IMG/VR virus record: IMGVR_UViG_3300032218_003260
Reading direction: 5' to 3' (one strand)
Source of the DNA: a virus
Taxonomy: Duplodnaviria; Caudoviricetes
DNA: 64,000 nucleotides
A program made the translations under genes and the position numbers. Below the pieces are notes generated by a model. The model worked only from the letters and a program-made list of their open reading frames with translations. It did no database searches and had not been told where the DNA came from. Position 1 is the stretch's first letter, and every line of letters starts with the position of its first letter. Below, one piece after another: positions 2,859 to 46,151 of this stretch.

Positions 2859-4316
2859 TCATGTGACATAATTTTGCAATACACAGTGGTTTGCTGTCAA
2901 CCAATTGTTTCCGTATTTCTCGCAGATGGCGGCGTAAGCAGCGATCTTATACAACGCGTAATGTTGCGCAAGAGCTGTTTCTGCTTTTCCACTCGCTTGC
3001 TTGTCGGACGGAAACTCAACTGCCCGGGCGTTACGAAGCGCGGCTAAATAAGCACGTTTCTCAACGCTGACGGGTAATACGCTATGTGTGTGTGCTACCT
3101 TTTCAGCCCATACGCGCACGTTTTGCGGCGCCGCATCAGCTGGAAAGTATACATTGTTTTCAAGTAGCGTGACGACATCTGCGTCGCTAGCTAGTTTTGA
3201 AAACACGTTAGGCAGCGCATACGCAACTGCACTAACAAGTGTGGCGTTAGCTGACTTAACTGTCAACGCTAAAAAATCTCGCAGGGGCAAGATTACGCCA
3301 GCGTCGACCAGTCCGCGTAACACCTCCGCCATTTTAACAGATGGCGCGCTATTTGTATCAATAGCCGGTTGTACCGCGTCAGAACTTGCAAGCGCAGTCT
3401 GGGCCCAGTTACCGCCAGCGCCTGCATCCTTTTCCGCCTGCGCTAGCTGGGTTAACGCTTCTAACTGCAACTGAACGCGGGCGGCAGGGGTACGTCCGAG
3501 GTCAAACCCGAGCGGCGCAGTAATACCTAGCTGCTCGGCAAGTTCGGCACCGGAAACGCAACTATTTGAGGCGGCTTTTTGCAGCTGGCCGGATACGTAA
3601 GCAATACGGTCGGCCGGGCGAAACACGTGGCTGATATCAAAAAACGTCGGGTTTGGATTATCGGCGTGCAGGACGTGACCGTCTTCAAGAACCCGACCCA
3701 TATTGTGCTTTAACCCGCCCGCCTTGCAGTGCCCGCCGTTCTCAACCGAGTCGCAATATTCAGCTCTAGTCTTGGCCGAGTTGCCGCAGGACGAGCACTT
3801 GTCGAACGGGATCTTGCAGGCCATCGACACAGCTATTTCTTTGTCGTTGGCCAGCTTTTCCAGCTCTTTGTCAGCAATCAAGCCGCCGTTTCGATCTGCC
3901 GCCTCTTTCGAACCGTTTAAAGCCACGACCAGCTCGATACGTTTCATGGGCTCGTGGTAGGCGCTGGCCTTTACGACGCCGAAACTTTTAGCGGGGTTCT
4001 TGTTGGCGTGGTCGCGGTAGAAGCGGGCAAACTTTTCAAACGTCTGGTGGTAGTTACGGCAGCAGTCGCGGGTAAAGCCGTCGCCGTTGCGGTTTGGGCC
4101 GTAGTCTTCCGTAGCGCCAATCGCAATCATGTGGACAGGCACTTCGTCTTTGGCAAACTTGATGTTTTCAAGCTTGTGCGCAAACTCAGCGCCAGCGCGT
4201 TTGATGAGGTCCTGCTTATCCGCGCCGATAATACCCCGGCTAGATACTTTAATTAGCGCGGCGACGGGCTCGCTAAAGTCTTGAGCGTGCGGCTGAATAA
4301 CCTTGATCATGCTCAT
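2859..4316 (-). CDS. Prohead (maturation) protease
   Basis: 485 aa with N-x-NGDGF, FYRDH and VSMAC (candidate nucleophile Ser), followed by a CSSC...C...HC cluster. Upstream of the scaffold and capsid genes. Confidence 0.65.
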   Translation of the reverse strand: MSMIKVIQPHAQDFSEPVAALIKVSSRGIIGADKQDLIKRAGAEFAHKLENIKFAKDEVPVHMIAIGATEDYGPNRNGDGFTRDCCRNYHQTFEKFARFYRDHANKNPAKSFGVVKASAYHEPMKRIELVVALNGSKEAADRNGGLIADKELEKLANDKEIAVSMACKIPFDKCSSCGNSAKTRAEYCDSVENGGHCKAGGLKHNMGRVLEDGHVLHADNPNPTFFDISHVFRPADRIAYVSGQLQKAASNSCVSGAELAEQLGITAPLGFDLGRTPAARVQLQLEALTQLAQAEKDAGAGGNWAQTALASSDAVQPAIDTNSAPSVKMAEVLRGLVDAGVILPLRDFLALTVKSANATLVSAVAYALPNVFSKLASDADVVTLLENNVYFPADAAPQNVRVWAEKVAHTHSVLPVSVEKRAYLAALRNARAVEFPSDKQASGKAETALAQHYALYKIAAYAAICEKYGNNWLTANHCVLQNYVT

Positions 4317-9527: not shown

Positions 9528-11909
9528 TTAAGCGTTTGCGATAGCGCCAAGATCAATATCCTGCGCGGCTTCTTCCGGGTACGGCTCAATCGTCTTCTGC
9601 TTGAGGAACAGAATGACGTCGCCTAGCATTTCAAACGCGTTGCGCAGCGAGTCTTCCAGTTCCGGCATGTCGGCCTTGCCGTAACGTTCGGCAAACCGGT
9701 CACCGTGCCAGTAGAACATGAACAGGATACGGCCGAGCTTATCGAGGCCCTTGGTCAGCTCGCCCATGTACCTATCGACAAGCGAGTCGTCTCGAACGGC
9801 ACGCAACATGGCGCCGACCATCGCGGTGTCGAACACCTCGCGCTGTCCGCTCTGCGCGGCATCAATAACAGAACGAACGTCTTTTTGGTCGAGCAGCGTA
9901 TTCGGGTTGTAAACGCTGCGGTCCGTTTGACTAGCGCTCATGCCCGGCACCTGCATGGCGGTATCAATGCCAAGCTGTGTAGGAACGTTTGTGCCCATGA
10001 TACTTTCGCCGCCCATTACCGGACCCGGATCAGTCGGCGCTGACGGAGCGCCGTTGATCATCATCGGGCCGCCGTACGGGTCGGCGTACTTAACGCGGCA
10101 CTCAAACTTGCGCTTGGCGGCCGCTTGTTTCAAGATCTCGCGGGCAGCCTGCTCGCGGAGGCCGTGGTGTTCCACTAGCGTAACGAGCGCTTTGATCGGG
10201 TTCAGGTTGGCTTCTTTGTTAATCGTTACCGACGAGCCGTTGTGATAAACCGTCAGCGCGGCGGTCTTTTGCATAAGAGCCAGTTGCGCGTCAACAAGGT
10301 TGCCGGGCATCAGGGCCGGCGGATCACTCTCACCACAACCACATGCGTTCTGATCTTCCGCGTTTTCGGCGTCATCTTCGCCTTTGCTCACCTTAAGAAG
10401 CTTGAAACCCTCCGGCACAAAAATGTCGCCCATGCTGGCGCGCAGGCTGGAACCCTTTTTACCGTTAAGGTGAATTCGAACACCGTCGCGGTACTTGTCG
10501 TAGTTCAGCGGGTCGGTATAGCAGCTGCCGCAAACGCTGCCCTTGGGCGGATACTTTGAGTGATCCTCAAGATGCACTTCGTAAATCGTGCTATCTTCGC
10601 TATTGCCGTACTCTTTGATCACGCGAAACGGCGCAGTAGTGTCGTTACGTTTGCTGAGCGCAATGTAACGGGCATCCTTGCTCGGAACGCTGTTGGCTTC
10701 CGGCAGGCTGTCAAACCACTTGTCAAACTCTTCGCCCTCAATGCGCGCCAGCGCAAAGACTTGGTCAGCGCGGGTGTTTAACCAGTTACGCGCGCCATCG
10801 ACGCGCACGACGGTGATGAAGTTTTCACGCTTGACGGCGCCTTGCGGATGTACGGCAACGTAGCAACGCTCGATGTTGCCCGGCTTGACCAGAATCTCGT
10901 ACAGGCCGCTTTCGGTCGGATTAAACAGCTTCTTTTCGACCTGAATGTGATACGGCACCGAGACGTTGTCGCGGTCGCGCTGGTCTTGGATCAGCACGCC
11001 GTCGCGCAGTAACTTCTCCTGATCTTCTTCCGTGTAGCCGTGCGGGGCCTTGGTCTGCACCGTCGCATCATACGTGATGACCTTCAGACCGGCTTGGGCG
11101 GCGGGTTTCTTGGGCGCTTCGGACAGCACGCTGGCTATCTTGGCGCTGGCGGCGAGTTCACGCTTCTTCGCTTCGGCCATCGCTTCCTTGATGATATCTA
11201 AACCATAGAATTCATCGATGGCGGAGGCGATCTGCGGGGCGTGCTTGCACGTGTTAATAAGCGTGCCGATTACTTCACGGCCAGCCTGTTTCAGAAACGT
11301 CTTCAGGTTCAGCGCGTCGCCCATTTCCTTGAACGCCTGCGCGGTATTTAACGTAGCGCTCTTGGCGAGAGCCGGCATCGCAGCCGTCATCATCTCTTTG
11401 AGTGTGGGCTGCGCAGAGCCAAACTTGGCCGGGCTGCGCGAAAGCTGCGTAAAGTCCGGTTGGCGCTGGCCCATGCCCGACAGGTTGCGTTGCACGCCGC
11501 TACCCAGAATGTTGGGCTTGCGGTTGATCAGGTAGTTAATCCAGTTTTCCTTAAGCGGTACGAACATGTCCTGATTTTTGATATACAGGAGTTCGTGGCC
11601 TTTGAGGTCGCCGTTGAGGAAGAACACCGGCGCATACAGCCAGTTAGAGCCAACCTTGAACGCAAAAACACCAACCGCCTTGGTGTTTTCCCGGTTACGG
11701 TCGAGAAGCTGGAAACCAATTTCGTGGTCGAGCAGCTTGGGGGCCGAATCGCGCAGATAGGCGTGGGCCAGATTGCTAAACGACTGCTCGAAGGAGGTGT
11801 CGTCGCCTTTGCCGCCTAGATCGGCATATTTGGTCTGGGTGCGGTCATACGACTGCATTACCTTCAACCAATGCTTAACAGACGACTCTTTCGCTTTTTT
11901 GTTATACAC
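9528..11909 (-). CDS. Large multi-segment structural protein with many K-x-A motifs
   Basis: About 790 aa; probable GTG start 6 nt after GGAGG; KYA, KSA, KIA, KTA, KEA and KQA motifs separate globular blocks. Confidence 0.7.
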   Translation of the reverse strand: MYNKKAKESSVKHWLKVMQSYDRTQTKYADLGGKGDDTSFEQSFSNLAHAYLRDSAPKLLDHEIGFQLLDRNRENTKAVGVFAFKVGSNWLYAPVFFLNGDLKGHELLYIKNQDMFVPLKENWINYLINRKPNILGSGVQRNLSGMGQRQPDFTQLSRSPAKFGSAQPTLKEMMTAAMPALAKSATLNTAQAFKEMGDALNLKTFLKQAGREVIGTLINTCKHAPQIASAIDEFYGLDIIKEAMAEAKKRELAASAKIASVLSEAPKKPAAQAGLKVITYDATVQTKAPHGYTEEDQEKLLRDGVLIQDQRDRDNVSVPYHIQVEKKLFNPTESGLYEILVKPGNIERCYVAVHPQGAVKRENFITVVRVDGARNWLNTRADQVFALARIEGEEFDKWFDSLPEANSVPSKDARYIALSKRNDTTAPFRVIKEYGNSEDSTIYEVHLEDHSKYPPKGSVCGSCYTDPLNYDKYRDGVRIHLNGKKGSSLRASMGDIFVPEGFKLLKVSKGEDDAENAEDQNACGCGESDPPALMPGNLVDAQLALMQKTAALTVYHNGSSVTINKEANLNPIKALVTLVEHHGLREQAAREILKQAAAKRKFECRVKYADPYGGPMMINGAPSAPTDPGPVMGGESIMGTNVPTQLGIDTAMQVPGMSASQTDRSVYNPNTLLDQKDVRSVIDAAQSGQREVFDTAMVGAMLRAVRDDSLVDRYMGELTKGLDKLGRILFMFYWHGDRFAERYGKADMPELEDSLRNAFEMLGDVILFLKQKTIEPYPEEAAQDIDLGAIANA

Positions 11910-11990
11910 GGCCAGCCTCCATGCTGCGCTCAAAATTAGACACAGCATTAATTTACTGCGTCGCGGTCCCTATATCCTACAAAAACAGGT

Positions 11991-26276: not shown

Positions 26277-26538
26277 TGCCTGTCATAAATTTTGCAACTA
26301 ATGCCAGCCACGCCAGCACGCCGCTAATAGCGAAAAAAATAATCACGCCGCTCAGGCTAACAACGCGCCCAAGCTTGTGAAAAGGAATTTCTTTGAGCAA
26401 ACGCCACGCTTTGACGTAATCCACAACAGTCGGCGTCGGCGCAGGAGTCGGGGTGGGCGGCGGTGCTGGTTGCGGCGCGTCTGGTGTCTTTTTTTTCCAG
26501 ATCCAACCGGTCAGTTTATCGAGCAGCGGCGTTTCCAT
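26266..26538 (-). CDS. Small membrane protein with a Pro/Thr linker
   Basis: Start METPLL; PAPPPTPTPAPTP then a C-terminal TM segment. Confidence 0.55.
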   Translation of the reverse strand: METPLLDKLTGWIWKKKTPDAPQPAPPPTPTPAPTPTVVDYVKAWRLLKEIPFHKLGRVVSLSGVIIFFAISGVLAWLALVAKFMTGIAR

Positions 26539-27961
26539 TGTTTTTCCCCCAGTTTTGAATGGTGTCAAAGATGTCATTGCCGTATAGCTGTGTTGCCTTA
26601 TCGAACATGTTCATTTGCGGCAGTGTTCCGGTCGCGGCGGCTTGCGCCATTTGATATCTATACTGCGGATCGAGCATCGAGCGATACAAATGCGACTTCT
26701 GTCGCGACGCCAGAATGAAATCACCCCGCTGTTTAGCCTTGAGCAGATGGTCTGTCACGTTTGCGAACACTGGTTTGTTGTGGTCGTATACAAACGGCGT
26801 TCGCAGATCGAGTAAGTTGCGGAACTGCTGCGCATACACACTATTGTCAGCGGCTTTAACCTGCGAACCGATCACTCCGGCGGGCGCATGAAACCGAAAC
26901 TTGGTCGGGCCGTGCGTAATGCCTTTGTATTTCGGCTTAGGATCATCGACGTTCCAATCCTGCGGCGATTGCGAGATTAATCGCCGCAAGATCTCGTGCT
27001 TGCGATCGTATTCACGGCGGTCGGAGTGGGTTTTCGCCGCACGCAACTCGTCGAGAGTGTTCGGTTTCTTAACTTTGGGTTCTTCTTCCGCGCCCTTCTC
27101 TATTTTTTCGATTTTTTCGTAGTACAGCGGGTCTTCTTGCAGATGATCCTTGGCAATTTCTTTGGCGATTTGATCGTCTCTTGTGTGTTCGTGCTCATGT
27201 TTAGCTCCTTCGGCTAACGCTGGTACAGAAAAATCCCGATCGGGAACATTATCGGCTTTTCCACCCGGTAACAGGTCGTTTTGTCCCGAGCGGGAAAGTT
27301 CTGCGGCGGCTTTAAGCTCTCCCCTGCTGATGGGGTTACTAAACCGCTGCCCTTCCGTCGTTTCGGCAGGGGTTTCGTAACCCTTCGACTTGCCGTTGTC
27401 GAGCAGGACGCCTTTACGTCTGGCAGCGACCGTAATGTGAAACGGGTGGTCGTCATTGGGAAGAGCCGACAGTCCGTAACTCTTTCGCAGCGCCGAAAGT
27501 CCCGGGGCGGAAACTTGAATTGCCCAAACTTTGCTTACACCGTTGACGTTTTTGACGTCGATTTCTTTCAGCCCGCCCAGCGTGTAGCCAAACATGTGGC
27601 CGCGCTCGTTAATCTTGTCAGCACCGATAGATGCTACCTCATCGGCCGTCATGATTGATATATGCGCATTTACCAGATCGCCCTTAACGTTTGGAACGTT
27701 AAACACGCCAGCAGTCGGTAATTCAACGCCGGGTTCGGTTAACGCGTCAAATACGCCGCGGACGAGCGCATTCGGTACAGATAACAAAAGCCAGCCAGAT
27801 TTGGCGAGATAGAGCCGACCAGCAAGCGGATAACTTGTGGCGGCCTGCTTGTTGCCGCTGCGGTAGAGCCAGCCGAGCGCGTTGCCGGCGGCGTAGGCGG
27901 GATGCTCGCGATAATACTGCGGGTCCCACGAGAGCGGATCAAGTGCTGAGAGGCTGTCCAT
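26516..27961 (-). CDS. Multidomain protein: 2H phosphoesterase + DUF5661-like domain
   Basis: 481 aa; HIS (aa100) and HIT (aa175) motifs; EHEHTRDDQIAKEIAKDHLQEDPLYYEK; modules bounded by KQA/KAA/KGA. Confidence 0.75.
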   Translation of the reverse strand: MDSLSALDPLSWDPQYYREHPAYAAGNALGWLYRSGNKQAATSYPLAGRLYLAKSGWLLLSVPNALVRGVFDALTEPGVELPTAGVFNVPNVKGDLVNAHISIMTADEVASIGADKINERGHMFGYTLGGLKEIDVKNVNGVSKVWAIQVSAPGLSALRKSYGLSALPNDDHPFHITVAARRKGVLLDNGKSKGYETPAETTEGQRFSNPISRGELKAAAELSRSGQNDLLPGGKADNVPDRDFSVPALAEGAKHEHEHTRDDQIAKEIAKDHLQEDPLYYEKIEKIEKGAEEEPKVKKPNTLDELRAAKTHSDRREYDRKHEILRRLISQSPQDWNVDDPKPKYKGITHGPTKFRFHAPAGVIGSQVKAADNSVYAQQFRNLLDLRTPFVYDHNKPVFANVTDHLLKAKQRGDFILASRQKSHLYRSMLDPQYRYQMAQAAATGTLPQMNMFDKATQLYGNDIFDTIQNWGKNNGNAAAR

Positions 27962-42757: not shown

Positions 42758-45290
42758 TTTCGTCGTCCAGAATGCTGGCGCTGGGTTGTGGCTTGGCGTC
42801 TGGATATTTTAACAGCCGGCGCTTCTTCTTTGAAAGCGGCTTATTGGGCGGTGTTAATTTGAGCGTTTGAAACACGGCGCTCGCTTTTTCCTGCACTTCT
42901 TTGTCTTCTGTTAATTCTCCGCGCCGCCGCTTGAGATACTTTTGTAACTCTTGCTCCTGATAGGCTTGAAGCATGGTTTTTACTTTGTCAGCCCGAGTGC
43001 GCGAGACTAGCTTTGCTGGGTCAATCGCCCAGTGCTGTAGCGCCCAGCCACGTCTTGGCGTGGGATTAGACATAAACGGGCCGCCATGTCTGGCTTTGAA
43101 GCTTGCCCAGCGCTTGATCTGTCGCGTGTCTTCGTCGGGAATGCGGCGGCCTGAGTTATAGTTCTGGTACCACTCCAGCCAGCCCTTGGGATCATGCTCT
43201 GTCACCCATTCTGGCTTCCATTCGCCCAAGCTAGCTAACCGCGGGCCTTCTTTCTCATAGAGCGATTTGTACACACCCATGCGATGTAACTGGCCCGGTG
43301 TAAAATCAGGTTGGAAATCAGGCAGCTCGGCGGCGGCTCGTTTCAAAAGCGCAGACACAACGCACGTCACCTGACCCGGTTCCGCTTCGGTGACGTGTTT
43401 GTGACAGGAAACCGGAAAAACATCCCCGCGTTGTGCCTGCGCTATTTTGTCTTGCACGTACTTCTGCATCGGCAATTCTTCCAGCGTCGTATGCTCGTAC
43501 GGGTTGCCTAACAGATCAAGTTGTTTGATGGCAGCACGCAGTTTGTAGATTGCCGCATTACCTGCAGGTTCACGTCCCGGTTTCCATTTGGGTTGGGTGC
43601 CAAATTTGTGCTTTTCAACTAAATCGTCGTCAGACCACGTCTTGCCTGTGTCGACGTGAAACCGGCCCATAAGTTTAGCCGTGTCTAAGTCTGGCGTAAC
43701 ATAACTGCCAGCGGCCAATGTTTGTAAATCAGCATTGGGCGAACCATGGTAGAACGTGCGTTGTTCCGCCACTTTCTGCTTGCGATATTTGTCGCCCTCG
43801 TCTTGCAAAATCTTGCGGAAGATCTCGTTGAGCTGTTCTTTCTCGGCCGTGAGGTGTTCAAGTACTTCGTCGCCAGTACGCTCGCGCTGATATCCCATGA
43901 GCTTGCCGATGATGCTCGGATCTTGGCTGGCGCTTAGATATCTTTGGACTTGAACGTTCTTGAGTTCTTCCGGTAAGTCTCTGTGCGAGTCAAAGCGCAG
44001 ACCACGACCGCGAGCTTGCTGGCTGCGCGACTCATGCCAGTGCGGGTCTAGAAGCTGGATGAGACTCGTACCCTTGGTGGACAAGCCTTCAGCGCCAGCC
44101 GGGCCGATGAGTAACGCCCGGAGCTTGCCGGTGTTGTATGCGTCCACGGCAGCTTGGCGCGCCTTTGTGCTAACGCCGCCGTGGAAAAACGCATGCGGGA
44201 TCTTGGCTTTCTCTAGGCCAGCAGCGTAGGGGGCCAAGCCAGAGTCAATAAAGTTGGAATAGATGATGGCTTTCTTGCGTTTGTCTTCGCCCAGCGTCTT
44301 TTGCAGGTTTTGAAACGCCGTCTGTAACTTTGCGCTCTGCTGAAACGCCTTGGCTGGATCTTTGTCAGCGCGAAAAGGCTGTGTACTGAGACTTACTTGA
44401 CGTAAACCAGTGAGGAAGCTGTTTAACTTCGCCAGCTCGTCTTTGGATAGCGGGAACTCTTGGTCCAACTTCCATAAGAACCCCGGCGGAATCTTCGTGC
44501 GAATAGCTTTTTGAATCTTGTCCTGCGCGGGAGACAGGGGCACACGCACGGTTTCTTCGTTAACATTCACGCCTTCAGGAGTCTTGCTCGGCTGGTAATC
44601 CACCTTGCCCTGTAGCAAGCTTCGCAATTCTTTCTCATTCTTCACCACGGGTTTCACACCGGGCTTCACGCCGCGCAGCCAGCCAAATAAGCCCGGTCGC
44701 ACAGTCTTATAGTCGATGTAGCGCTTCTCGAATTCCTCGGGCGTGATCGATTTGTTGTTCAGCATCGACAACAAGTTCGCCAAGTCCGTGGGCGAATTTG
44801 TGATCGGCGAGCCTGTGAGCAGCAGCAGGCGTTTGGCTTGAGCAGCAGCTTCCGCGGCGCCAGCAGAACTCGCGCTCCCCGGATTACGCAGCCTATGCGC
44901 CTCGTCCATGATGAGCGTTTTGGGCGGCGTTTGGAACTTCTTGCCCAAAGCTAATCCCGTGTAGCTCATGATCTCGGGGTTAGAATTCCGCGTGAACTTT
45001 TTGATCTCTTTATCGAAGTTACCGCGCAAGCTCGCCGGAACCACCACGCCATAGTCTTCGTTGTCTTGCTCTTTGGCCGCTTCAGCAGCAGCCAGAGACG
45101 AGAGTGATTTCCCGGAACCCAGCCCGTGATACACAAGCAGTCTGGGATCTGGGCCGGCAATACGGTCGGCAATCCGCTGCTGATGCTCTTGCAGCTGGAT
45201 TTCGGGAAGTAGTTCTGCGACTTTATGCCACAGGCCAGCCGGAAGCGCGGATGTCTTCGGCGCAATGTCGTCGTCGAGAATGCTGTTCAT
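42735..45290 (-). CDS. Multidomain protein: SF2 helicase + ART-like domain + DPxGW domain
   Basis: 851 aa; HGLGSGKS, MDEAH, LTGSP and QQARGRGLRFDSH; then FYHGSP...SYVTP; then DPKGWLEWYQNYNSGRR...RQIKRW. Confidence 0.85.
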   Translation of the reverse strand: MNSILDDDIAPKTSALPAGLWHKVAELLPEIQLQEHQQRIADRIAGPDPRLLVYHGLGSGKSLSSLAAAEAAKEQDNEDYGVVVPASLRGNFDKEIKKFTRNSNPEIMSYTGLALGKKFQTPPKTLIMDEAHRLRNPGSASSAGAAEAAAQAKRLLLLTGSPITNSPTDLANLLSMLNNKSITPEEFEKRYIDYKTVRPGLFGWLRGVKPGVKPVVKNEKELRSLLQGKVDYQPSKTPEGVNVNEETVRVPLSPAQDKIQKAIRTKIPPGFLWKLDQEFPLSKDELAKLNSFLTGLRQVSLSTQPFRADKDPAKAFQQSAKLQTAFQNLQKTLGEDKRKKAIIYSNFIDSGLAPYAAGLEKAKIPHAFFHGGVSTKARQAAVDAYNTGKLRALLIGPAGAEGLSTKGTSLIQLLDPHWHESRSQQARGRGLRFDSHRDLPEELKNVQVQRYLSASQDPSIIGKLMGYQRERTGDEVLEHLTAEKEQLNEIFRKILQDEGDKYRKQKVAEQRTFYHGSPNADLQTLAAGSYVTPDLDTAKLMGRFHVDTGKTWSDDDLVEKHKFGTQPKWKPGREPAGNAAIYKLRAAIKQLDLLGNPYEHTTLEELPMQKYVQDKIAQAQRGDVFPVSCHKHVTEAEPGQVTCVVSALLKRAAAELPDFQPDFTPGQLHRMGVYKSLYEKEGPRLASLGEWKPEWVTEHDPKGWLEWYQNYNSGRRIPDEDTRQIKRWASFKARHGGPFMSNPTPRRGWALQHWAIDPAKLVSRTRADKVKTMLQAYQEQELQKYLKRRRGELTEDKEVQEKASAVFQTLKLTPPNKPLSKKKRRLLKYPDAKPQPSASILDDENAADSSK

Positions 45291-45302
45291 GAACCACGTG
45301 AC

Positions 45303-46151
45303 CTATTTTGACTCATTTATATCTAAATGGGTCGCCGGCTCTGGACCCGTGGTAGCCTGCGCGGCAAGCGCTAGCTCGTGCTGCTTGATCTGCGATTCTA
45401 CCCAATCCCGGTACATACTCACACGGGTAAAAGCACTGTCGTCGCCATACGTGCCGTCCGGTTTACCGTCGTCGTGGGCCAGAAACGAATTAATTCCGGC
45501 TAATTCGTTGCCGATAAACATTCCGCCGCCAGAATCACCGGGGGCAATCATGAACTCTAGCGGAAACCGGCCGTCTTTGCGGGGGGCGCAGGCGACCACC
45601 GAGAGAAACGCCGCCGAAAGCTTATTCTGTCCGGCGCGGCGTTGGTTGTCTGATTTGGTGGCGCCCGTTGTAAAGTTTCCAGTTGAACCCCAGCCCGCGA
45701 TGGTGACAGCCTGCCCAAGTTCATCTGCTTTTGTGTACAGCGGCACGTAGAAGTTCAGCTTGAAATCATCGTCAACATAACAGAGCGCAATGTCGTGCAG
45801 GCCAACTTTGTTTTCGTTGTAGTCCTTGTGCTGCACCTTGTAGGCCACGTGGTGTTTCTTCTCGCCAACATAAATCACGTCGTCTTTGGAGCCGTTAATA
45901 ACATGCGCCGCGGTCAACGCCCAGTGCGGTCTAATAATGACCGCTGATGCCAGTTGTTCGTGGTTCTTTTCGCACTTCTTGCAGTCGACGTTATTGGTAA
46001 TTCGGACTACAAACGGAAATTGCTTGCCAAATTCGACGTACTTGTCGTCGGGAGTGCTGGGGTCGATCGTGCCGGCCATCGCGGCACGCGATACAGCCAA
46101 GAGAATAATCACGAATCGTAGTAGGCGGGCAAATAGTTCTTGCACGTTCAT
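45303..46151 (-). CDS. Exported trypsin-like (S1) serine protease
   Basis: 282 aa; signal-like N-terminus, LTAAHV, HDIAL and GDSGG. Confidence 0.92.
   Translation of the reverse strand: MNVQELFARLLRFVIILLAVSRAAMAGTIDPSTPDDKYVEFGKQFPFVVRITNNVDCKKCEKNHEQLASAVIIRPHWALTAAHVINGSKDDVIYVGEKKHHVAYKVQHKDYNENKVGLHDIALCYVDDDFKLNFYVPLYTKADELGQAVTIAGWGSTGNFTTGATKSDNQRRAGQNKLSAAFLSVVACAPRKDGRFPLEFMIAPGDSGGGMFIGNELAGINSFLAHDDGKPDGTYGDDSAFTRVSMYRDWVESQIKQHELALAAQATTGPEPATHLDINESK

Follow-up and report, generated by a model that had tools for sequence, protein, structure and literature searches.

A Snf2-fold helicase family of large tailed phages with affinity to the D6/D11 transcription helicases of poxviruses and giant viruses

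Poxviruses and giant viruses begin infection with a polymerase borne in the particle and with Snf2-type helicases, and a gene found on a tailed-phage contig raises the question of whether some bacteriophages rely on a comparable arrangement. The gene, P0001, lies in a 64,000-nucleotide stretch of DNA (hereafter the window) from the IMG/VR virus record IMGVR_UViG_3300032218_003260 (Duplodnaviria; Caudoviricetes). The original prediction, made from the sequence alone, described its product as a superfamily 2 (SF2) helicase resembling NPH-I and the early transcription factor ATPases of poxviruses and other nucleocytoplasmic large DNA viruses (NCLDV), and proposed that it belongs, along with the RNA polymerase (RNAP) of the phage, to an analogue of a packaged early-transcription apparatus. 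The source is an uncultured lake phage of ~200 kb, the longest contig carrying the exact helicase protein being 201,997 bp, and a megablast search with the locus against 50,697 phage records returned no match.

The identity of the protein as an SF2 helicase is far beyond chance. Two Pfam models match above their cut-offs (SNF2-rel_dom, 5.4e-11; Helicase_C, 2.3e-11), the PHROGs family phrog_62 ‘DNA helicase’, whose profile is 1881 positions long, matches at 6e-44, and relatives at E<=1e-30 make up 843 clusters at 50% identity. The Swi2/Snf2 motif set is intact (LQEHQ, GSGKS, DEAH, TGSP and QxxGRxxR), and the motifs on which the original prediction was built, namely HGLGSGKS, DEAH, TGSP, motif VI and VQVQRY, are all present on the minus strand inside the span it had assigned (43821-45203). 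That span equals residues 30-490, but the gene encodes 851 amino acids (aa) and carries two further C-terminal modules, so that the order of parts is ATPase core, a module that we term Y, a linker, a module X and a basic tail. Residues Q425, R429, R432, S435 and H436 are invariant across 61 diverse cores of the family, as are the residues of the Q-motif and motifs I and II listed in Table 1.

A structural model supports the same assignment. AlphaFold, given residues 1-510 and an alignment of 61 diverse relatives, yields a predicted local distance difference test score (pLDDT) of 92.6 and a predicted template modelling score of 0.88. Both the model itself and its VIA and Foldseek comparisons reveal two RecA-like lobes with the helical insertions specific to Snf2 proteins. 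Whole-core VIA matches include INO80 (Z 30.7, root-mean-square deviation (rmsd) 3.1, 405 residues aligned), CSB (Z 26.6, rmsd 3.3, 413 aligned) and vaccinia NPH-I (Z 23.8, rmsd 4.2, 429 aligned), and Foldseek matches many remodelers at E about 1e-20. The window gene is predicted, from its sequence and this model, to encode an ATP-driven Snf2-fold DNA translocase with intact catalytic motifs.

Which branch of this large fold the protein belongs to is a separate matter. Motif VI does resemble that of NPH-I, as is evident from the HMMER alignment of vaccinia ‘GRAIRLNSH...RRYVNVHF’ with ‘GRGLRFDSH...LKNVQVQRY’ of the window protein. When a profile of the phage family is compared with the PDB, NPH-I scores best (1.5e-22) and is tied with SsoRad54 (2.5e-22), with ISWI and INO80 behind them; RapA reaches 1.7e-10 in a match confined to the beginning of lobe 1 (profile positions 22-151), which is far below NPH-I, SsoRad54 and ISWI. 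A search of the viral fold library BFVD returns a family member at rank 1, giant-virus proteins that carry the label ‘Early transcription factor 70 kDa subunit’ or ‘DEAD/SNF2-like helicase’ at ranks 2 and 4-8 (3e-32 to 4e-23), and ordinary phage SNF2 helicases only from rank 9 onward.

The pattern W-N-E-x4-Q-x2-G-R-x2-R-x2-S-H, scanned through IMG/VR, brought out the phage family and, besides it, many bins of giant viruses as well as contigs in the size range of poxviruses. NCLDV capsid genes were detected in representatives of both the short and the long NCLDV groups and in 0 of 4 phage-family contigs, as judged from the 8 of 28 records searched. All 36 aligned NCLDV sequences, which were selected by the motif, carry SH in motif VI where classical SNF2 proteins carry GQ. 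An insertion of ~6 residues containing Leu-Pro, located before the VxVxRY strand and outside the pattern used to select sequences, is shared by the phage family and by the short and long NCLDV groups; the window protein reads SH-RDLPEE-LKNVQVQRY at this place, and poxviruses retain the Pro alone. Neither SH nor the Leu-Pro insertion occurs in 18 classical ‘HRIGQ’ SNF2 proteins or in the 4 nearest ordinary phage helicases. GRxxRxxSH followed by V-x-V-x-x-Y had been put forward as the mark of NCLDV helicases, and this needs refinement: SH with the Leu-Pro insertion is specific, but the V-x-V strand by itself is common to SNF2 proteins in general.

Phylogenetic analysis was conducted with the whole region from motif V through motif VI and the following strand deleted, which kept 413-419 columns. 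The trees are unrooted, a motif served to choose the sequence sets, and neither vaccinia D6R nor the helicase of the yeast plasmid (VLE ORF4) is among them. The phage family and the NCLDV helicases form one clan with a support of 100 in the SH-like approximate likelihood ratio test (SH-aLRT), even with the motif region excluded. Forcing the phage family to group with ordinary phage helicases costs 191.6 log-likelihood units and is rejected by the approximately unbiased (AU) test (p-AU 2e-87), and the other rival grouping is rejected as well (p-AU 6e-68). Thus, the phylogeny that had been suggested as a check gives no clustering with ordinary phage or bacterial SNF2 helicases. A placement of the phage family nested within NCLDV and a placement as their sister are not distinguished (p-AU 0.51 and 0.48, neither favoured).

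The resemblance to D6/D11 helicases claimed at the outset holds as membership of one clan with NCLDV, but the nearest NCLDV members are the short giant-virus forms rather than poxvirus NPH-I. With the motif region masked, hidden Markov model scores have medians of 208 bits for short NCLDV, 102 for long NCLDV, 81 for ordinary phage helicases, 69 for GQ-type SNF2 proteins and 32 for poxvirus NPH-I, whose likeness to the phage proteins is mainly around motifs V-VI. Individual short giant-virus helicases (about 440-550 aa; L149, L141, L112, L148, L204 and others) score 186-250 bits when compared with the profile of the phage family, or 2-3 times as much as classical SNF2 proteins.

Because profile searches, the viral fold library, the shared insertion and a phylogeny computed without the selection motif all point to the D6/D11 helicases, the assignment of the phage helicases as a phage branch of the D6/D11 lineage is supported. 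We found no description in the literature of this phage family as D6/D11-like, and a preprint on D6/D11 phylogeny notes that good outgroups are lacking and mentions no phage relatives (bioRxiv 10.1101/2022.05.25.493380). A further-reaching proposal, which we advance only tentatively and with some doubt, is that D6/D11 helicases, a hallmark of giant viruses and poxviruses and also of the yeast killer plasmids, and the RNAP accessory helicase of tailed phages might share a specific common origin, such that an early-transcription module of packaged multisubunit RNAP and Snf2 helicase would have crossed, by exchange or inheritance, between the two great realms of dsDNA viruses.

The family is varied in architecture. 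The core is 63-95% identical across many ~200-kb contigs and occupies any position within proteins of 400-2900 aa, from minimal forms that consist of the core only (472-497 aa) to relatives whose extra modules, in any order, include AAA/kinase-like, NUDIX and DUF6321 domains. Its cultured members are Gp217 of Salmonella phage Arash and one protein of Pseudanabaena phage PA-SR01. The family is nearly absent from 185,579 prokaryote genomes, in which a scan with a single narrow pattern found only two scraps of metagenome-assembled genomes.

The window encodes a multisubunit RNAP as a fusion of beta with the N-terminal part of beta' (beta-beta'N), which is 32% identical to Arash gp206, and a separate subunit for the C-terminal part (beta'C), followed by a conserved gene, p806. 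RNAP beta is present in 30 of 32 long IMG/VR contigs that carry the helicase (from 95% down to 40% identity) and in all 13 helicase genomes that are >=90% complete; the two contigs that lack it are fragments with a completeness of 56-60%. The helicase gene is found within the RNAP operon, or immediately next to it, in at least four divergent lineages: the order is beta-beta'N, helicase, beta'C, p806 in contigs L076-L081; beta'C, helicase, p806 in L055; beta'C, helicase in Arash; and helicase, beta-beta'N in L075. In L078 a bare core of 497 aa starts 3 nt past the stop codon of the polymerase gene.

The third partner of this operon is p806, which in L055 and L076-L080 comes after either beta'C or the helicase. 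By tblastn it matches the Arash gp218 region at 1.7e-5 and the equivalent gene of Vibrio phage D69 at 7e-7, and among solved proteins in the PDB it has no detectable similarity, A7 included. Another window open reading frame (ORF) of 485 aa (2859..4316) is homologous to the Arash virion protein gp222. The layout of beta-beta'N plus beta'C is found also in Arash, in Vibrio phages D69, D148 and D181 and in dozens of IMG/VR genomes; the phage RNAP is split just after Rpb1 domain 2. In D69 (L004 19223-23172) the genes for beta-beta'N, beta'C and the gp218-like protein are kept and a 66-aa ORF occupies the place of the Arash helicase, a natural ‘deletion’.

In the clade to which the window belongs, the helicase gene sits >10 kb from the RNAP genes in a conserved block of genes for p1270, p671, a trypsin-like protease, the helicase and a Gly-rich protein. 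In a tree of the core, with midpoint rooting only, this cargo-block arrangement forms one well-supported derived clade in which the basal member shows the operon arrangement; branches lying deeper either are RNAP-linked or have no known context. Since the cargo block is confined to one clade with an operon-context basal member, RNAP linkage is probably ancestral in the family, as far as gene order and this tree indicate. We consider that the helicase apparently moved from the RNAP operon to a putative injected cargo block in the window clade and gained there its ADP-ribosyltransferase (ART)-like and helical modules.

Evidence on packaging comes from Arash. Gp217 (WGL32668.1) is a true family member, 33% identical to the window protein and scoring 2e-124 against the profile, with SH and the Leu-Pro insertion and with the same fused RNAP in its genome; it differs in being a core-only protein of 472 aa encoded right after beta'C, whereas the window protein has 851 aa and is encoded away from the RNAP. 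Virion mass spectrometry of Arash covered 100% of Gp217 and yielded 38 unique peptides and 1148 spectra for it, compared with 1210 spectra for beta' Gp216, 1149 for Gp218 and 3516 for Gp206, the most detected protein (PMC10585845). These counts correspond to 2.3 spectra per residue for gp206, 2.0 for gp216, 2.4 for gp217 and 1.9 for gp218, or roughly equimolar amounts of Gp217 and the RNAP subunits. The Arash paper lists Gp217 in virions without interpreting it (PMC10585845). By analogy, the window protein would likewise be packaged in its virion.

Several observations weigh against a role in a packaged transcription apparatus. NPH-I is not the best PDB match by whole-core structure, being absent from the Foldseek top 50 and ranking 49 in VIA. 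In the window, about 27 kb separate the helicase gene, which has cargo-type neighbours, from the genes for RNAP. Moreover, PA-SR01 has a family member (4e-117) and no RNAP beta or beta' signature, and D69 has the Arash-type RNAP and p806 and no family helicase; from these two exceptions, helicase and RNAP do not strictly need each other. Their co-occurrence is also confounded by common descent, in that most contigs may belong to one viral family. The Arash virion preparation held 116 proteins, ribonucleotide reductases included (PMC10585845), and since metabolic enzymes were found in it, detection alone is not specific and is suggestive rather than proof. Finally, the cargo leader peptide M-N-P-F-E-F-G occurs in none of 296 family proteins. 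The packaged early-transcription apparatus that the original prediction proposed thus gains indirect support from relatives, through RNAP co-occurrence, operon linkage and the Arash virion data, but the distance between the window gene and its RNAP genes and the two cultured phages that break the linkage count against it.

On balance, we favour, with modest confidence, the view that the protein is a D6/D11-lineage Snf2 translocase that acts as an accessory to a packaged, injected two-subunit phage RNAP and that, in the window clade, is also a carrier. The helicase group spans phages of ~100-230 kb, and the phage’s own RNAP (beta-beta'N fusion plus beta'C) would be its ancestral partner. The helicase would be made late and packed into the capsid along with the polymerase, would enter the cell with the injected DNA, and would then move on DNA, driven by ATP, beside the polymerase during early transcription. 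We infer both a physical contact between helicase and RNAP and the step of transcription that it affects.

The step most likely to be served would come after initiation, with the motor pushing or releasing polymerase during elongation, termination and transcript release, or recycling. Among known Snf2-type ATPases, NPH-I effects release at termination, RapA effects recycling, and CSB likewise pushes or releases polymerase. Arash and D69 both encode sigma factors, and that of Arash is found in virions; because sigma factors are encoded, a post-initiation role is more likely than initiation of the kind carried out by vaccinia early transcription factor (VETF). RapA/HepA resembles the predicted phage system in being a Snf2-type ATPase with RNA polymerase as its target, but it differs in its classical motif VI, and the window core begins at residue 23 with no RapA N-terminal domains. 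In the window clade the motor would double as a delivery vehicle for additional modules in the style of polyvalent proteins, and it is probably also a carrier of extra activities into the cell.

The closest known parallel is that of the NCLDV D6/D11 helicases themselves (NPH-I D11L, 6rfl_Y and 8c8h_Y; VETF small subunit D6R, 7amv_W; the superfamily II (SFII) marker), which share with the phage family the two-lobe Snf2 fold, GRxxRxxSH, the Leu-Pro insertion, the VxVxRY strand and membership of one clan. NCLDV also have their own multisubunit viral RNAP, and the Arash homologue is found in virions as are NPH-I and VETF. The differences are that the phages are tailed and use a bacterial-type, sigma-using fused beta-beta' RNAP, and that the window protein has two added modules. 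No Rap94 or A7 partner turned up in the window genome, which was not searched for either.

A second parallel is offered by the yeast cytoplasmic plasmid pGKL2. Its D6/D11-like helicase K2ORF4p interacts in vivo with RNAP and DNA, and its RNAP (ORF6/ORF7) consists of a beta-beta' fusion and a beta' C-terminal subunit, an arrangement said to have no counterpart among other RNAPs (Sykora et al. 2018, PMC6211774). The phages resemble pGKL2 in combining a two-subunit fused RNAP with a D6/D11-like helicase (K2ORF4p being compared by description), but pGKL2 is a cytoplasmic element of eukaryotes whose presumed ancestors were poxvirus-like, and its RNAP split point probably differs from that of the phages. 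The phiKZ-like jumbo phages have a Rad25-related Swi2/Snf2-type helicase, often encoded beside beta'C, that was predicted to act in the manner of RapA (Iyer et al. 2021, PMC7824862) and that shares the phyletic tie to phage multisubunit RNAP. Because no phiKZ-like phage is among the tblastn hits at E<=1e-5 or the top 50 viral fold matches, the phiKZ-group helicase seems to be a separate family with a similar arrangement, set apart by these searches and by description.

Among competing explanations, the one that survives best, which we nevertheless judge unlikely, is that the protein is a polyvalent anti-defence cargo. Like DarB of phage P1, it would be an injected motor that shields DNA or strips host proteins and that carries effectors such as the ART-like module, and the RNAP proximity in relatives would merely reflect a shared region of virion-protein genes. 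The family does resemble polyvalent proteins in its make-up (Iyer et al. 2017, PMC5512222), with the same Snf2 hub as DarB, several unrelated domains, an architecture that varies between relatives of 400-2900 aa with the core at any position, and cargo-type neighbours. The best PHROG match is a 1881-position ‘DNA helicase’ profile, the window gene lies near a 1270-aa multi-enzyme protein and a protease, K-x-A motifs fall at module borders, and PA-SR01 retains the helicase without a phage RNAP. However, the defining partner of DarB-type SNF2 modules is a DNA methyltransferase domain, and none was found in P0001 at E<=1 or among the Pfam domains of 150 listed relatives; the window protein has neither the adenine methyltransferase nor the LPD36 partner, and the methylase dyad of DarB is missing. 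In addition, the core-only forms of 472-497 aa are genes of RNAP operons, with a gap to the polymerase gene as short as 3 nt, the operon context appears on deeper branches with the cargo block restricted to one derived clade, and the nearest outside relatives are giant-virus transcription helicases.

It is quite improbable that the helicase is instead a VETF-like initiation factor, in which the ATPase would be the small subunit and the large, DNA-binding one would be p806 (Arash gp218), after the manner of vaccinia D6 and A7. The best named viral-fold matches are indeed annotated ‘Early transcription factor 70 kDa subunit’, and p806/gp218 is a conserved neighbour, present in Arash virions in roughly the same molar amount as Gp217. 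Against this idea stand the sigma factors of Arash and D69, present in virions for Arash, with which initiation probably needs no VETF, the fact that p806 resembles no solved protein, A7 included, and the retention of p806 without the helicase in D69. An ordinary replication, recombination or repair helicase, such as an annealing helicase or UvsW substitute, is the least probable explanation: it would account for the generic ‘DNA helicase’ annotation, for a Snf2 fold shared with Rad54, Rad5 and CSB and for the location of ordinary phage SNF2 genes among replication genes (e.g. beside DnaQ in Gordonia phage Orchid), but in the loci examined the gene is never amid replication genes and lies instead in RNAP operons or virion/cargo blocks, its homologue is abundant in Arash virions, and the grouping with ordinary phage helicases is rejected as given above.

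The C-terminal part of the window protein lies outside the motor core. AlphaFold models residues 506-851 as two confident domains with a disordered linker between them. The first, module Y, has conserved residues H (in FYHGS), Y (in SYVTPD) and E (in NPYEH); its best VIA match is 9ld3_A, a complex with ADP-ribose (Z 6.7, rmsd 2.6, 74 aligned), followed by the Rhs toxin TreX, 8s2m_B (Z 6.0, rmsd 2.4, 77 aligned), which weakly suggests an ADP-ribosyltransferase-like fold. Module Y is sporadic, only some relatives having one. The second, module X, bears a signature rich in W and R (PKGWxxWYxxYxxGRR...RQIKRWxSFKARHGG...PTPRRGWAL) and is permuted among relatives, lying N- or C-terminal to the core. 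An apparent universality of module X (97-99% of 149 homologues) was an artefact of ranking; of 146 unbiased representatives, only 14 contain the module. Neither module matches Pfam at E<=10, and in the atlas both fall in unnamed clusters with DUF3990 (template modelling (TM) score 0.50 with module Y), DUF5824 (TM 0.57/0.32) and DUF6321 (score 0.87) as leads. Helical module X, about 130 aa long, is mobile: elsewhere (P0122) it is joined to DUF6321 and a zinc peptidase, and it stands alone as an unannotated ORF in Vibrio jumbo phage pVa-21 (KY499642 46886-47359; L003 6001-6474).

A further feature of these proteins is the tripeptide K-x-A. It lies exactly 10 residues ahead of LQxHQ in 203 of 243 family proteins, and four of the five copies in P0001 are at module borders or linkers (residues 23, 506, 615 and 650). 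A reading as a cleavage tag gains no support from its frequency, there being no overall enrichment (5 found, 7.1 expected); K-x-A-E occurs twice (P = 0.07). The fixed spacing, which is kept even in proteins that start at this place, could be structural.

The window helicase gene starts 12 nt past the upstream protease gene, and its 3' end overlaps the start of the following gene by 23 nt; neither sigma70-type promoters nor terminators near the gene exceed chance. The trypsin-like protease has a hydrophobic N-terminus and is a conserved neighbour across the close clade (synteny in L011-L054 and others). Elsewhere in the window, a 481-aa protein (26516-27961, minus strand) contains the ‘Swiss Army Knife’ 2H phosphoesterase domain 2H-SAK (8.9e-8) and DUF5661 (1.5e-8), both of which are typical of phage polyvalent or cargo proteins, and a 406-aa protein (54394-55614, minus strand) carries acyl-CoA:6-APA acyltransferase / NAAA-type (Ntn hydrolase) domains, which are unusual in phage.

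Table 1. Positions in the window of the helicase gene, its parts and the associated genes.
Feature	Coordinates	Strand	Evidence or remark
Whole gene P0001, 851 aa	42735..45290	-	ORF list and translation
Snf2-fold ATPase core, D6/D11 type, residues 23-505	43776..45224	-	Pfam, PHROGs, AlphaFold, Foldseek, VIA
Q-motif LQEHQ	45180-45194	-	Sequence; Q37 invariant in 61 cores
Motif I / Walker A HGLGSGKS, residues 55-62	45105..45128	-	G58, G60 and K61 invariant in 61 cores
Motif II DEAH, residues 129-132	44895..44906	-	D129 and E130 invariant in 61 cores
Motif III TGSP, residues 159-162	44805-44816	-	Sequence
Motif VI QQARGRGLRFDSH, residues 424-436	43983-44021	-	Sequence; aligned to NPH-I
VQVQRY strand, residues 446-451	43938-43955	-	Sequence
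D6/D11 signature: motif VI QQARGRGLRFDSH, RDLPEE insertion and VQVQRY, residues 424-451	43938..44021	-	
Module Y, residues 506-613, beta-rich, weakly ART-like	43452..43775	-	Model pLDDT about 90
Module X, residues 655-805, helical	42876..43328	-	Model pLDDT about 90
Trypsin-like serine protease, 12 nt upstream of helicase	45303..46151	-	Pfam Trypsin 2.9e-20
RNAP beta-beta'N fusion, 1467 aa	14851..19254	-	Pfam Rpb2_6 2.6e-49 and Rpb1_2 3.8e-24 in one ORF
RNAP beta'C, 626 aa	11991..13871	-	Pfam Rpb1_5 5.1e-24; homologous to Arash gp216
p806, conserved last gene of RNAP operon	9528..11948	-	Weak homologue of Arash gp218

The affinity between these phage helicases and the D6/D11 lineage has consequences for how both groups are recognised. 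‘SFII / DEAD-SNF2-like helicase’ is a standard giant-virus marker. Since short giant-virus helicases score ~210-250 bits against the phage profile and the top fold matches carry the marker annotation, screens could pick up these lake phages, which are abundant and could thereby enter NCLDV SFII metagenomic surveys. The combination of a fused and split RNAP with a D6/D11-like helicase, which has been called unique to yeast cytoplasmic plasmids, is common in a large phage group.

D6/D11 trees have been rooted between paralogues, cellular outgroups being poor (bioRxiv 10.1101/2022.05.25.493380), and the phage family could serve as an outgroup for rooting this NCLDV core gene. If the proposed role in early transcription is true, the phage counterpart would provide an easy model for motors that aid polymerase termination, release and recycling, as Arash grows on Salmonella Typhimurium.

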